A stretch of DNA of 58,827 nucleotides, from the NCBI GenBank assembly GCA_013694995.1, contig JACDBH010000004.1:1-58827 (forward strand). Reading direction: 5' to 3'. Shown piece after piece: positions 1 to 55,440 of this stretch. Under the pieces are notes generated by a model. That model made no database searches. It saw only the letters and a program-made list of their open reading frames with translations, and was not told the origin of the DNA. The stretch's first letter is position 1. Each line of letters begins with the position of its first letter. A program made the translations under genes and the position numbers. Source of the stretch: Candidatus Saccharimonadota bacterium. Lineage in GTDB: Bacteria; Patescibacteriota; Saccharimonadia; Saccharimonadales; JACDBH01.

Positions 1-35
1 GCCTATAACAGATGAGCAATGTACAGAATATTGTT

Positions 36-112
36 TGGTCGGGGTGAGAGGACTCGAACCTCCGGTCTCCGCGTCCCAAACGCGGCGCGCTAGCCAACTG
101 CGCCACACCCCG
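36..112 (-). tRNA. tRNA-Pro (anticodon UGG), copy 1
   Basis: The reverse complement folds as a 77-nt cloverleaf. Acceptor is CGGGGUG/CACCCCG, anticodon stem CCGCG/CGCGG, loop UUUGGGA, T-loop UUCGAGU, and the CCA is encoded. Confidence 0.92.
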
Positions 113-159
113 ATAATGTGCTGATTAATTGTAAAGGTTCGAGCCATGGATGAAAAGGA

Positions 160-262
160 CTCGGTCACCTTCGGCGACCCCGAAACTTGCGCGTATGGCA
201 ACAAGTTGCCATCGGAAGGTTTCCTTGCGAAATGCCACTGGCATTTCTCACTCACTCCACCC
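160..262 (-). repeat. tRNA-associated structured repeat, copy A1
   Basis: About 75% identical by eye to 487-576. The two share an exact 23-mer, tggcaacaagttgccatcggaag (196-218 = 523-545). It has three hairpins (163-179, 196-211, 230-246) whose stems differ from copy A2 by compensatory changes. Confidence 0.6.
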
Positions 263-299
263 CACGGGTCTCGCAAGTTCAAGACAAACTAAATCTCTA

Positions 300-344
300 C
301 CATAATAAATAATCCTACAAAAAATGCAGGATTATTTATTATGG
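300..344 (-). terminator. 17-bp AT-rich hairpin starting at the CCA end of tRNA-Lys(UUU)
   Basis: ccataataaataatcct (300-316) pairs with aggattatttattatgg (328-344). The right arm includes the encoded CCA. There is no clean U-tract, so it could be a terminator or a processing structure. Confidence 0.4.
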
Positions 345-418
345 AGGGCCCAGTGAGACTTGAACTCACGACACCCTGCTTAAAAGGCAGGTGCTCTAAC
401 CAGCTGAGCTATGGGCCC
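342..418 (-). tRNA. tRNA-Lys (anticodon UUU)
   Basis: 77-nt cloverleaf on the reverse strand. Acceptor is GGGCCCA/UGGGCCC, anticodon stem CCUGC/GCAGG, loop CUUUUAA, and the CCA is encoded. Confidence 0.93.
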
Positions 419-486
419 GTATATTACGGGTTTGTATTGTTAAATCTTGTTACCTAACGTTAATGTAAGCACCTCTATTTTCAAAG

Positions 487-576
487 GCAGGGTCACGTAT
501 CGCGACCCCCGAACTTCACTATTGGCAACAAGTTGCCATCGGAAGATTCGTTTCCGAACTGCCGCTGGCAGTCCTC
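487..576 (-). repeat. tRNA-associated structured repeat, copy A2
   Basis: Paralog of 160-262. Its hairpins at 490-508, 523-538 and 558-572 have the same tops (GCC-AGY-GGC, GCAA-CUUG-UUGC) with covarying lower stems. It directly follows the truncated tRNA-Lys 5' part. Confidence 0.6.
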
Positions 577-602
577 ACTCTGACCATCTGAACTATGGGC
601 CC
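577..602 (-). pseudogene. tRNA-Lys-like 5' fragment (acceptor 5' strand plus D-arm only)
   Basis: The reverse complement GGGCCCATAGTTCAGATGGTCAGAGT matches the first 26 nt of tRNA-Lys(UUU) at 22/26. I found no anticodon arm, T-arm or 3' acceptor strand downstream. Confidence 0.6.
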
Positions 603-734
603 TCGTCGGCGTGTGATGGTCTAATGACCAAGTTTCCGCCAAAATAAATTTGCCCGGCAACTTTAGTCATCAGACCAAGCTGCCTCCTCTCAAACTCCCA
701 AACAGCAGGCAAGCTGCTTAGCTTGGTGTTTTGC
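603..734 (-). ncRNA. Conserved structured tRNA leader, copy X-prime
   Basis: Homologous to 55517-55644. Shared blocks are ccctcgtcggcgtgtgatg and gcctcctctcaaaNtcccaaac. The intervening helices have different sequences at equivalent positions. Confidence 0.45.
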
Positions 735-765
735 TATTAGGATTTATGGCAAAAGAACAGGGGTA

Positions 766-794
766 ATTATCCTGTATTCATCTGTAAAAGTCAA
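766..794 (-). promoter_or_regulatory. Sigma70-like promoter of the leader/tRNA operon
   Basis: On the minus strand: TTGACT (789-794), a 17-nt spacer, then GATAAT (766-771). The architecture matches the promoter at 55677-55705. Confidence 0.5.
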
Positions 795-900
795 TTCATA
801 ATAGGTTGTATTTGGGTCTTGATAGGCGCCTGTCACTGAGGATTTCTAATTACGAGAAGGCGGGAGTATGATTAGTAGTATTAATCAAGAGGTGAAAGAA

Positions 901-1308
901 ATGACAGAATATAAAGAAACGGTTACAACGAGCCAAGACGAAGGAGTAGATAGCACAGGGGCACAGGTTCAACAGGAAACCCGGAGAGTCGACACCAAGG
1001 TATCGGCAGACAGTAGGTCCACAGCAGCCAATGTTGTTTGGTACATTTTAGGATTTATTGAAATTTTGCTGGCTTTTAGGTTTGTACTTAAACTTCTTGG
1101 GGCTAATCCCAACAGCGGATTTGTAGACTTCATCTATTCAATTACAGGTGTTCTAACAGGACCCTTTGACAATATCTTTGGTGTTGCAAGCACAAGAACA
1201 GGTGCTGTCCGATCCGTGTTTGAACCGTCAATTCTTGTTGCGGCTGCGGTCTACGCCCTTATAGCTTGGGGCATTGTTAAGCTCATGAACGTTAATCGTA
1301 GTACGTAA
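901..1308 (+). CDS. YggT-like small integral membrane protein
   Basis: The ORF runs 868-1308. The ATG at 901 is preferred because it has a GAGGTG RBS 6 nt upstream. The hydrophobic core is VVWYILGFIEILLAFRFVLKLLGANP...TGPFDNIF. Confidence 0.55.
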   Translation: MTEYKETVTTSQDEGVDSTGAQVQQETRRVDTKVSADSRSTAANVVWYILGFIEILLAFRFVLKLLGANPNSGFVDFIYSITGVLTGPFDNIFGVASTRTGAVRSVFEPSILVAAAVYALIAWGIVKLMNVNRST

Positions 1309-5496: not shown

Positions 5497-6078
5497 ATGA
5501 TTGCGACACTTTCTGGGGTAATAAGCGAAAAGCTGTTAGATACGGTCGTATTGAGCGTCAATGACGGCGTTGGCTATGGACTACTAATGACTATCGAGGA
5601 TTATGCCAACTTGGCCTTAGGCCAAAAGGTTAAAATATATGTCTACGAGCATATTCGAGAAAACGCTTATGACTTATTTGGTTTTACTAGCCTCGATAGT
5701 AAATCGATGTTCGAACAACTTTTAAGTGTCAATGGTGTCGGGCCGAAGTCGGCTTTGAGTATTTTATCACTTGGAAATACTAATGATGTTCGGCTGGCAA
5801 TTGCTGAAGGCCATATTAAGTATATCCAAGCGGCAAGCGGCGTTGGCAAACGCGTAGCTGAACGGGTAGTCGTTGATCTTAAAGATAAAGTTGGGTTGGC
5901 AGCGAGCGATGATGCCACTACATTCTTACAATCCCCAAGTGCTGGCAGCGACGAAGCCATGCAGGCACTAGTAGCACTCGGCTACAGCCCACAGGATGCG
6001 GGCTTGGCACTGAAGAATATTGATAAATCCTTACCTGCAGAAGACAGGATTAAGCTAGCTTTGAAAGGTAAAAGTTAA
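5497..6078 (+). CDS. ruvA: Holliday junction branch migration protein RuvA
   Basis: MIATLSGVI...[13 protein letters not shown] (HhH motifs). Its stop overlaps the ruvB start. Confidence 0.92.
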
Positions 6079-26588: not shown

Positions 26589-26665
26589 TGGTCGGGGTGA
26601 GAGGACTCGAACCTCCGACCCCCTGGTCCCAAACCAGGTGCGCTAGCCAACTGCGCTACACCCCG
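26589..26665 (-). tRNA. tRNA-Pro (anticodon UGG), copy 2
   Basis: 77-nt cloverleaf. Its acceptor, D-arm and T-arm are identical to copy 1. The anticodon stem is CCUGG/CCAGG, versus CCGCG/CGCGG in copy 1, and the loop UUUGGGA is the same. Confidence 0.92.
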
Positions 26666-33771: not shown

Positions 33772-33792
33772 TGGTACACCCGGAGGGATTCG
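33772..33792 (-). repeat. Exact 21-nt copy of the tRNA-Arg(UCU) 3' end (att-like)
   Basis: tggtacacccggagggattcg is identical to 33946-33966, in the same orientation. Confidence 0.9.
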
Positions 33793-33898
33793 CCTGGCTA
33801 GCAATTCAAAATTAGAATTGCTTAAAGCCACCCCAAATCCAGTTGGTTTGGGGCAAGGGGCGGGGAATGTCCACTGGACATTCCCGTTCGAATCCCTC
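33783..33898 (-). repeat. Structured repeat copy A4 (four-way-junction-like fold)
   Basis: A 10-bp closing stem, gagggattcg (33783-33792) with cgaatccctc (33889-33898), encloses three hairpins at 33801-33821, 33831-33853 and 33863-33885. The last has the family CCAGUGG top. Confidence 0.55.
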
Positions 33899-33904
33899 GC
33901 TGAG

Positions 33905-33949
33905 ACCAAAATAAGAAGTTCTAGGCAAGCTAGAACTTCTTATTTTGGT
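33905..33949 (-). terminator. 20-bp perfect hairpin beginning at ACCA of tRNA-Arg(UCU)
   Basis: accaaaataagaagttctag / ctagaacttcttattttggt with loop gcaag. Confidence 0.5.
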
Positions 33950-34022
33950 ACACCCGGAGGGATTCGAACCCCCGACCTGTGGGATAGAAGCCCATTGCTC
34001 TAATCCGCTGAGCTACGGGTGC
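33946..34022 (-). tRNA. tRNA-Arg (anticodon UCU)
   Basis: 77-nt cloverleaf. Acceptor GCACCCG/CGGGUGU (G1-U72), anticodon loop CUUCUAU, T-loop UUCGAAU, and the CCA is encoded. Confidence 0.9.
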
Positions 34023-34059
34023 ATACCTAACGATTTTAACATTAAAATTGTTCTAATAG

Positions 34060-34240
34060 GGATTCGACCCGCATTCTGCGGGCCCGCAACTACATCTTTC
34101 AAAACAAGTTTTGAAGAGTAGGTTGCCTTGCAAACCGCCACTGGCGGCTTTCACCACGACTCATAAACTGCCTGTGGCAGTTTATGCTTTTCATGCTTGA
34201 CCGAATGAGAAGGTTTATCTCCGTGAGAGTATATAAGTCA
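34060..34240 (-). repeat. Structured repeat copy A3
   Basis: Hairpins at 34068-34082 (GAA loop), 34098-34115 (CUUG top), 34135-34147 (CCAGUGG top) and 34163-34185. Their order and tops match copies A1 and A2. Confidence 0.5.
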
Positions 34241-34288
34241 GGTGTGATAGAAGCCCATTGATCCAAGTCCTGTCTGAGCTACCGGGGC
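34241..34288 (-). pseudogene. tRNA-Arg(UCU)-like 5' portion (acceptor through variable region)
   Basis: The reverse complement reads GCCCCGG-UA-GCUC...AAUGGG-CUUCUAU-CACAC-CUGAC, paralleling the intact tRNA-Arg. No T-arm or matching 3' acceptor strand follows. Confidence 0.6.
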
Positions 34289-55255: not shown

Positions 55256-55402
55256 GTTTATATTTTACTCCGTTTTCCTATTAGTACAGAAGGAGGAATA
55301 AAATTAAGCACTGTCAAAGGAAAACATTTACTGTCACAGGTTATTAATGCCCACAGGCACCCCTTTGGTATGTCCGGACTTCAAGTTCTTGCAAAACATG
55401 CC

Positions 55403-55440
55403 AAATAAAATGACCCATCTTAGGATGAGTCATTTTATTT
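55403..55440 (-). terminator. 12-bp hairpin beginning at the 3' end of tRNA-Lys(CUU)
   Basis: aaataaaatgac / gtcattttattt. Confidence 0.45.

Follow-up and report, generated by a model that had tools for sequence, protein, structure and literature searches.

A family of compact three-helix elements, most likely RNA, lodged in hairpin loops of truncated tRNA copies in Saccharibacteria

The window analysed here is a 58,827-nt stretch of DNA from Candidatus Saccharimonadota (contig JACDBH010000004.1, assembly GCA_013694995.1, forward strand 1–58,827), an ordinary segment of a Saccharibacteria chromosome that encodes ComEC, PilB, RNase Y, MurB and SHMT. Around two of its tRNA genes lie four copies of a structured element of about 90 nt, referred to below as the core: A2 and A1 to either side of tRNA-Lys(UUU), and B1 and B2 to either side of tRNA-Arg(UCU). 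An earlier reading of the letters alone (the original prediction) had described the first locus as a tRNA operon containing paralogous structured elements. The order that it gave for the minus strand, on which the parts of both loci lie, is borne out, the tRNAs having been located by ARAGORN and Rfam; "operon" proved a loose term, most units and tRNAs being equipped with a −10 box and a terminator of their own. In what follows, a class I unit lies upstream of an intact tRNA and a class II unit downstream of a tRNA and its terminator, R1 is a covariance model that was built from the family and used to score the window copies, and the L numbers denote 8-kb tiles from relatives, all of them metagenome-assembled genomes (MAGs).

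Read 5′ to 3′ along the minus strand, the A locus opens with the leader of the A2 unit (603–794), which could be aligned with those of L008, L118 and L035 and has a promoter-like site, TTGACT-17-GATAAT (794–766, 10/12 matches). It leads into a tRNA-Lys 5′ fragment (578–602), comprising the acceptor 5′ strand and the D arm, which is 88% identical to the first 25 nt of the intact gene (394–418), as expected for the truncated tRNA-Lys that had been proposed. The A2 core (491–578; R1 match 475–585, 101.6 bits, E 3e-30) follows the D arm, at position 25/26 of the truncated copy. The spacer to tRNA-Lys (419–490) starts with an anticodon stem-loop remnant, CCTGCCTTTGAA (480–491, a 92% direct repeat of 380–391), and the intact tRNA-Lys(UUU) (342–418; ARAGORN, Rfam) has A2 upstream and A1 downstream. 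Behind it is a terminator-type hairpin (300–344) at the centre of a palindrome of about 100 nt; its arms (300–319 and 325–344, 95% complementary) are 20 nt long rather than the 17 bp first reported. The conserved part of the A2 leader (603–712) recurs in L008, L118 and L035, ahead of some of the units with the core at position 25/26 or in the D loop, in the order AGGAG..GC, a hairpin with a AAACTTGTTT-type loop, and CATCACACGCCGACGA. Its hairpin resembles helix H2 of the core, and the motif may be a partial core or a separate element. A 25-codon small open reading frame (ORF) in the same leader was set aside, its reading frame not being conserved in L008.

The 5′ flank of A1 (252–299) contains an inverted copy of the tRNA-Lys T arm (266–290, 76% complementary to 352–376), followed by a forward copy of the tRNA-Lys variable region and the 5′ strand of the T stem (252–265). 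The A1 core (163–251; R1 match 147–258, 105.9 bits, E 1e-31) folds into H1 (loop AGU), P2/H2 (loop CUUG) and H3 (loop GAA). Its 3′ flank (113–162), recognised from the sequence and from the tails of class Ia units at other loci, is a degenerate tRNA-Pro 3′ fragment, GAGTCCTTTTCATCC, with a reverse-complement T-loop, CTCGAACC; within it lies a promoter-like site, TTTTCA-17-TACAAT (156–128), for the intact tRNA-Pro(UGG) that is the downstream neighbour of A1 (36–112; ARAGORN; Rfam tRNA, 66.6 bits). A1 and A2 share an exact 23-mer, CTTCCGATGGCAACTTGTTGCCA, with two matches in the window and none in 100 shuffles, and are 77% identical over the core, in keeping with the roughly 75% claimed originally. 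Judged by its flanks, A1 is a hybrid of a downstream 5′ flank of tRNA-Lys type and an upstream 3′ flank of tRNA-Pro type, such as recombination between two adjacent cores would be expected to produce.

The end of the window needs some caution. In the closest metagenome (X1, from soil), a 26,247-nt contig is identical to the window from 372 to about 26,618, but window 65–339, which covers A1, its terminator and most of the first tRNA-Pro, has no match at ≥97% among the X1 contigs, and in a 19-kb contig of the same depth another terminator, TAAAAAGACCTATTGAAAAATAGGTCTTTT, follows tRNA-Lys. The stretch with A1 and tRNA-Pro at the window end therefore represents either a strain-level difference or a chimeric contig end, a doubt that leaves A2, B1 and B2 untouched. 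The window has two tRNA-Pro(UGG) genes (36–112 and 26589–26665), which is unusual for a reduced genome; they have identical 3′ halves and differing anticodon stems, and the metagenome contigs break at both.

The B locus starts with a 47-nt tRNA-Arg 5′ fragment (positions 1–44; 34242–34288) that precedes B1, and whose acceptor strand reads GCCCCGG against GCACCCG in the intact gene; the GCCCCGG type is found in the intact tRNA-Arg(UCU) of L075 and L080. An isolated H1-like hairpin, AAACTGCCACAGGCAGTTT (34165–34183, partial R1 match to positions 12–30), is probably a relic of an older core. The B1 core (34067–34154; R1 match 34051–34161, 110 bits, E 6e-33) sits in the T loop of the truncated tRNA-Arg copy. 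Between B1 and B2 lies the intact tRNA-Arg(UCU) (33946–34022; ARAGORN, Rfam), and a class II unit follows (33772–33945), made up of a terminator hairpin (33908–33945), an inverted T-loop/T-stem, GAGGGATTCGAA (33887–33898), the B2 core (about 33796–33886) and 21 nt identical to the tRNA-Arg 3′ end including CCA (33772–33792). B2 gave only a marginal match to R1 (33800–33894, 13.9 bits, E 0.011), although its fold of three hairpins, with a 10-bp helix closing them, is still recognisable. Thus, of the two distant copies named in the original prediction, B1 is a full member and B2 a decayed one, and both are fused to partial tRNA-Arg sequence as had been said; the core boundaries are slightly narrower than first drawn. 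The two loci have the same plan (A2, tRNA-Lys, terminator, A1; B1, tRNA-Arg, terminator, B2), an intact tRNA standing between two units. A core-less relic, consisting of an inverted T-arm segment and a forward variable/T-stem piece (55371–55386), lies downstream of tRNA-Lys(CUU). The region after this tRNA and its terminator (55371–55439) looks like a unit that has lost its core, and relatives have a full class II unit at tRNA-Lys(CUU) (L034, L050, L053, L100 and L112).

To survey the family, one genome per GTDB species (596 Gb) was scanned with a degenerate pattern taken from the three good copies A1, A2 and B1 (GCCAGYGGC, TTYGNAA and AACTTGTT at fixed spacing), which fixes several loop and stem positions and with which the set of copies was assembled. 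The scan gave at least 119 further loci, where a calculated 0.3 or so would be expected by chance, and profile searches of the family loci gave 120 to 143 copies. The hits came nearly all from MAGs of Saccharibacteria (Saccharimonadales), often several per genome, whereas 2.9 million viral contigs gave no match to the pattern. One MAG assigned to Paraglaciecola arctica includes the 3.9-kb contig of L105 (QIJM01000165.1), which has tRNA-Ala and nested cores; the bin was probably contaminated by a Saccharibacterium. With Rfam 15 at the gathering score, only tRNAs were reached in the window and 19 further loci, and in E-value mode over window 1–1000 the cores were overlapped only by weak matches at chance level; hammerhead, twister, twister-sister, pistol, hatchet, HDV-like, group I and II intron, Y RNA, tmRNA and RNase P were among the tested families that gave no match to a core. 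Literature searches turned up no description of a family of this kind of about 90 nt. A1, A2 and B1 are strong members, and B2 a decayed member, of one Saccharibacteria-specific RNA-element family of about 90 nt, apparently undescribed until now. The expectation that more copies would be found in relatives, where they number in the hundreds, and that no known RNA family would match, was thus upheld.

The structure was examined in an alignment of 111 distinct copies, in which fold, covariation and strand specificity can be read directly. Three helices were present: H1 (columns 12–30, AGU triloop), P2/H2 (columns 36–80, CUUG loop) and H3 (columns 83–100, GAA loop), meeting in a conserved junction of 5′ GUGA, a GNRA-like GCAAG or GGAAA, and GG. 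RNAalifold returned these three helices with 23 of 30 pairs compensatory, both sides having changed. In our own 32-pair structure 95.8% of cells held standard pairs, against 27–48% when the 3′ partners were slid by 1–3 columns; changes on both sides were seen at 24 of the 32 pairs and in 657 cells, against 51–95 cells in the slid controls, and none of 500 shuffles reached any of the observed measures. Column pair 15–27, for example, is CG in 54 copies, AU in 33, UA in 10 and GC in 8, and pair 89–94 is CG in 45, GC in 36, AU in 14 and UA in 11. Copies found by the model outside the pattern covary even at the helix tips (GCC/GGC to CCC/GGG, UUC/GAA or ACC/GGU) and vary in the length of H3. The three hairpins and the compensatory substitutions quoted in the original prediction are real, and the covariation that it rested on is very strong in the family as a whole.

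Across the pairs G·U occurred 186 times and A·C 34 times, one pair being G·U in 89/111 copies and another in 46/111. This excess, together with the pair that is G·U in 89/111, indicates that the fold belongs to the sense strand only. Junction bases G8, U9, G10, A11, G81, G82 and A93, which the search pattern did not demand, are more than 95% conserved, and the H1/P2 junction is GCAA or GGAA, hence GNRA-like; such a junction sequence and a CUUG tetraloop are typical of RNA. Taken together, these features indicate selection on the sense strand, most likely as RNA. Three further structural proposals were rejected: a pseudoknot between the H2 loop CUUG and the junction CAAG shows no covariation and cannot form in the GGAAA variant or where the loop differs, the covarying 12–30 pair lengthens H1 at the expense of a separate GNRA hairpin behind it, and the 3′ UGA of a box C/D-like reading falls within the covarying H3 helix.

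The positions of the cores follow rules of site, adjacency and orientation that are apparent from the loci themselves. Among the 143 copies, 114 have a same-strand tRNA no more than 200 nt away, and 4 adjoin a tRNA on the opposite strand. The elements had been described as fused to broken tRNAs, a picture that can be refined: the neighbouring tRNA is present as a truncated copy, and one of its hairpin loops (T, D or anticodon loop, or position 25/26) accommodates the core, a role taken in one case by a non-tRNA hairpin; the three-helix structure as a whole is closed by the stem of its host hairpin, and the intact cognate tRNA almost always adjoins the unit in the same orientation. The flanks map to positions 1–53, 1–24, 1–16 or 58–77 of the neighbouring tRNA. 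They lack a complete cloverleaf, none of them is called by ARAGORN, and in many host fragments the anticodon loop has been destroyed or reshaped. Elements occur at more than 25 tRNA types, with upstream units at 33 tRNAs and downstream units at 53; 57 of 147 tRNAs have no element, and only 4 of the 90 occupied tRNAs have cores on both sides.

Upstream units fall into several types. In one, tRNA positions 1–53 precede a core in the T loop and are often 52/52 identical to the intact gene; in another, positions 1–24 precede a core at 25/26, as in A2, with flanking AGAG/CUCU that can pair and that change together in L011 and L035; in a third, positions 1–16 precede a core in the D loop (Glu, Gln); and at Pro-GGG the core is in the anticodon loop. 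Downstream units run in the order inverted T arm and variable region, forward positions 44–53, core, and positions 58–77 including CCA, usually with a second terminator. In the Gly(GCC) upstream units (L011, L035, L057, L093, L107 and L072) and the Glu/Gln upstream units (L040, L102, L118 and L069), the host sequence behind the core is remodelled into a hairpin with the hexaloop CCAGGC, which thus appears in unrelated tRNA contexts with different stems (TCCTTG-CCAGGC-CAAGGA and AGGACA-CCAGGC-TGTCCT). The non-tRNA target is a conserved hairpin upstream of dprA-topA, whose loop takes up the core; three units stand there in tandem in L037. This hairpin (L037 about 1410–1450, L043, and L073 about 5830–5870) is terminator-like with a G-rich loop, GACCTNNAGAGG-GGGTGGGCACC-GCTNNAGGTC and then CACCCTTCAACCCACC, and it has no match in Rfam.

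The tRNA-derived sequence around the core has a forward-inverted-forward layout. Downstream units contain an imperfect palindrome of about 100 nt that is centred on the terminator loop and extends from about tRNA position 44 almost up to the core. It covers a median of 87% of the region from tRNA to core, against 28% for 48 control tRNAs without a core, and on the A1 side it spans 109/124 nt. In upstream units, the core is followed by 8–15 nt of tRNA and then by the reverse complement of the same (a reverse T-arm segment). The acceptor part of the inverted copy is at chance-level identity, so that the original extent of the inversion is uncertain. Forward-inverted-forward copies with junctions at short palindromes, as in an inverted triplication or tandem inversion duplication, are accordingly present here, and layouts of this kind that turn in hairpins are a product of fold-back template switching (PMC4689423, PMC10766183, PMC8794818). 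The inverted triplications of origin-dependent inverted-repeat amplification (PMC4689423) have the same copy order and turning points in hairpin loops, which here are those of the terminator, T arm and anticodon arm, and comparison with hairpin-capped intermediates (PMC10766183) and with template switching that creates RNA hairpins (PMC8794818) points likewise; the family differs in its scale of tens of nt rather than kilobases and in the structured element held by the third copy. A fold-back template-switch origin of the duplication is what we infer. An origin as a retrocopy of mature tRNA was also considered, since the fragments start at +1 and end in CCA. It was rejected: leaders and trailers are mostly not duplicated, but L089, L047, L102 and L041 also duplicate the terminator or leader, and the inverted segment argues for an event at the DNA level.

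Several features point to insertion. Two cores occupy one pseudo-tRNA in L005, L022, L025 and L077, one core is nested in the H3 position of another in L021, L044 and L105, and L037 carries a tandem array. Cores at different tRNAs of one genome have a mean identity of 0.78, rising to 0.977 in JAPUFB and 0.943 in OY970318, whereas cores at the same tRNA site in different genomes (0.717) do not exceed the background of 0.72. The spacers of upstream units gave no orthology signal either, at 0.574 for the same site and 0.587 for different sites. L075, L080 and the window are not alike in how the Gly(UCC)-Arg(UCU) locus is occupied, and decay is evident within the window in B2, the hairpin at 34165 and the relic after tRNA-Lys(CUU). 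In L052 the acceptor strands of the 5′ and 3′ fragments are complementary to each other (GCCATCT/AGATGGC) and differ from the intact tRNA-Thr between them; the differing acceptor types in L052 and in the B locus indicate that the resident tRNA was split or replaced at least twice.

With regard to expression, TATAAT boxes precede the starts of the pseudo-tRNAs, and a separate −10 box for the intact tRNA lies in the spacer. The promoters of tRNAs and pseudo-tRNAs (window 1–15 on the minus strand, L094, L051, L095 and many other loci) show an extended motif, (A)TCTGTTATAAT or TCTGTTAAAAT. TTGAAC was discarded as a −35 box, as its spacing to the −10 box is 3–10 nt and not 17, and is better read as a reverse T loop. 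Short contigs in three metatranscriptomes cover cores at about 88–90% identity, which corresponds to relatives, and could reflect carry-over of DNA; in four wastewater metatranscriptomes compared with L035, only the tRNA was covered.

Selection of an RNA type and insertional behaviour can be reconciled if the family is an RNA-structured, non-autonomous insertional element that is expressed on a tRNA scaffold, a reading to which we give a probability of about one half. The element would land in single-stranded hairpin loops, mostly those of tRNA genes, and would survive only where fold-back duplication leaves an intact tRNA beside the interrupted copy, so that insertion and rearrangement would be linked. 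The interrupted copy would be trimmed to a 5′ fragment where the element is upstream, or to a 3′ fragment ending in CCA where it is downstream of the tRNA and terminator. Fold-back template switching during replication would account for a partial duplication with an inverted middle and turning points in hairpin loops, and the resulting chimera would be transcribed from tRNA-type promoters, displaying the element on a tRNA-like scaffold. The folded molecule would then be RNA and not single-stranded DNA, insertion would be an active process, and any partner would act in trans. A further reading, which we consider doubtful, would make the core the RNA component of a new mobile or RNA-guided system that propagates through tRNA mimicry, including the 3′ CCA tail: either a small catalytic or ligatable RNA that inserts into exposed hairpin loops of other RNAs or genes, or a scaffold RNA whose tRNA-derived flanks target a protein encoded elsewhere.

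The insertional element proposed here would have much in common with REP/REPIN, Correia, RPE and BOX elements and miniature inverted-repeat transposable elements (MITEs), which are likewise short, multi-copy, non-coding and lineage-restricted, form stable hairpins, are often co-transcribed with their neighbours, and show higher likeness within a genome as well as nested and decayed copies. It differs from them in its three-helix junction with conserved bases and RNA-type covariation, and in its strict placement: cores occur within hairpin loops of truncated tRNA copies, accompanied by an inverted tRNA segment and a neighbouring intact tRNA. The ends are also unlike those of a MITE, the core starting with GUGAGAA and ending with GUGACC, and the duplicated flanks being 16–53 or 17–20 nt long and containing inverted segments.

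Several observations weigh against an insertional element. Terminal inverted repeats and a target duplication of fixed length are both absent from the family, and when the 582 ORFs within 3.5 kb of cores at 119 loci were clustered, no transposase, integrase or reverse transcriptase recurred; the commonest neighbour was a histidine kinase family (10/119 loci), the top families were housekeeping ones, and in the window only housekeeping domains were found, with no TnpB, IscB or other transposase. The occupied side of a given tRNA type is consistent across species (Val-UAC 5/5 downstream, Ser-GGA 4/4 upstream, Gly-GCC 5/6 upstream), a pattern that inheritance of old insertions would explain as well as a site preference would. 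At least 16 of 17 positions match the intact tRNA in 30 of 53 3′ fragments, and many 52-nt 5′ fragments are 100% identical to it, while the inverted segment has decayed to chance level; either the flanks are under selection or the copies are young, to judge from this contrast. Were they neutral, perfect 52-nt direct repeats separated by about 150 nt ought to disappear rapidly. Conservation at the columns fixed by the search pattern is uninformative, because the copies were gathered by that same pattern, and the evidence for transcription consists of assembled metatranscriptome contigs of relatives, beside the promoter-like boxes.

Many of these points would be expected if the units were a family of host non-coding RNA genes, that is, a tRNA-scaffolded RNA serving as part of a ribonucleoprotein or as a tRNA mimic or decoy, inherited vertically and homogenised by gene conversion, with rare new copies arising by duplication of tRNA loci. 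Such an RNA would fit the RNA-type covariation and the conserved junction bases, the predicted promoters of the units, the side specific to tRNA type, forward flanks that stay near-identical to the cognate tRNA while the inverted segment decays, the persistence of unstable direct repeats in a streamlined genome, and the lack of a mobility gene nearby. The units also resemble tRNA-linked RNAs (small RNAs derived from the 3′ external transcribed spacer, plant dicistrons of tRNA and small nucleolar RNA, gammaherpesvirus chimeras of tRNA and microRNA, and engineered tRNA scaffolds), in which a structured RNA in or next to tRNA-like sequence is expressed from a tRNA-type promoter, an arrangement that could provide processing and stability. 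The units described here differ in their scaffold, a truncated tRNA whose acceptor stem is incomplete and whose loops accommodate the module, and in the presence of dozens of copies at different tRNAs. Function would hardly explain the stacking of cores in a dead tRNA, core within core, tandem arrays and an unrelated hairpin as a target; nor does it sit easily with the many tRNAs that have no element (57/147), variable occupancy of the same locus between species, decayed copies, the failure of cores to cluster by site across genomes, or host fragments whose anticodon loops are destroyed or remodelled. We regard the host RNA as the main rival, possible if on the unlikely side. Of the readings put forward in the original prediction, a non-autonomous tRNA-targeting element and a processed tRNA-linked non-coding RNA, both are still the leading explanations.

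A third possibility is that the RNA is irrelevant, and that the folded sense strand serves as single-stranded DNA substrate for a recombinase or transposase encoded elsewhere, in the manner of IS200/IS605 ends or attC sites. This would be compatible with a strand-specific structure in consistent orientation, with targets whose hairpin loops could form in single-stranded DNA as well, and with downstream units that need no transcription through the first terminator. The sub-terminal hairpins H1 and H3 and the strand-specific insertion also recall IS200/IS605-derived (PATE-like) elements, but the left junction is only G-rich (G|GUGA) and the flanks are duplicated. The G·U pairs at two positions (89/111 and 46/111 copies) and the RNA-typical GNRA-like junction and CUUG tetraloop speak for RNA, and a search of the loci, to 3.5 kb from each copy, showed neither a Y1 or other transposase nor an integron integrase. 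An attC site would be a single hairpin and not a three-helix junction, its core sites (RYYYAAC/GTTRRRY) do not occur at the ends, and the viral contigs gave 0 matches. On balance, an element acting purely at the DNA level appears improbable.

It is very improbable that the units are att-site scars of larger integrase-borne elements at tRNA genes, with the core as one arm of an attachment site. The downstream units do lie between direct repeats of the tRNA 3′ end, as between attL and attR, large serine recombinase genes abut tRNA-Pro or tRNA-Gly 3′ ends in four loci, and tRNA-targeting integrative elements similarly leave an intact tRNA beside a displaced partial copy with junctions in the T or anticodon loop; in two cases in the present family, the displaced fragment comes from a different allele. 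Here, by contrast, the unit is about 170–250 bp without an integrase, the direct repeats enclose only about 200 bp without an ORF, 5′ fragments are as common as 3′ fragments, and there is an inverted middle copy. Cores also lie in D and anticodon loops, at position 25/26, upstream of tRNAs and in a non-tRNA hairpin; they covary like RNA and are the same at more than 25 tRNA types, and the viral contigs held no intact integrative element with the core as part of attP.

The remaining reading, in which the element is spliced out or two halves are joined to give a functional tRNA, is close to refuted already: although the sites (D loop, 25/26, anticodon and T loop) resemble those of archaeal non-canonical introns and split tRNAs, and 5′ and 3′ fragments each carry a core, no copy lies between two complete exons, the host copy is truncated and the functional tRNA is a separate intact gene almost always adjacent, cores flank both sides of only 4/90 occupied tRNAs (which makes a two-piece tRNA from upstream and downstream units unlikely), the 5′ and 3′ acceptor strands mismatch at the B locus, the host is a bacterium with CCA-encoding tRNA genes, no bulge-helix-bulge is evident, none having been searched for, and a core of about 90 nt with incomplete exons and no intron match in Rfam falls short of the roughly 200 nt or more of the P1–P9 catalytic core of a group I intron.

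To our knowledge, the non-coding RNA repertoire of Saccharibacteria, which are abundant and reduced episymbionts, is almost unknown, and a large, covariation-supported RNA family that is lacking from Rfam 15 adds to it a distinctive architecture, in which dead tRNA copies beside a live one harbour a compact three-helix RNA in their loops. It raises the questions of how an element colonises essential single-copy tRNA genes without killing the cell, and why streamlined genomes retain dozens of such units. If the RNA were the mobile or guiding agent, the mechanism would be new; if it were a host RNA, the family would represent a natural tRNA-scaffold expression system. In either case the covariance model is useful for annotating tRNA loci and pseudo-tRNAs in genomes of the Candidate Phyla Radiation (CPR), and for flagging assembly breakpoints at repeats.

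A large serine recombinase was considered as a possible partner of the element, being present in five loci, but it belongs to a separate element at tRNA 3′ ends. The genes concerned (Resolvase, Recombinase and Zn_ribbon_recom domains; L051 4724–6469, L119 1204–2871, L057 5684–7177 and L107 5762–6187) run towards tRNA-Pro(UGG) or tRNA-Gly(GCC) and overlap its last 9–10 nt, the overlap being longer in the truncated locus L107, and this looks like a separate family of Saccharibacteria integrative elements.

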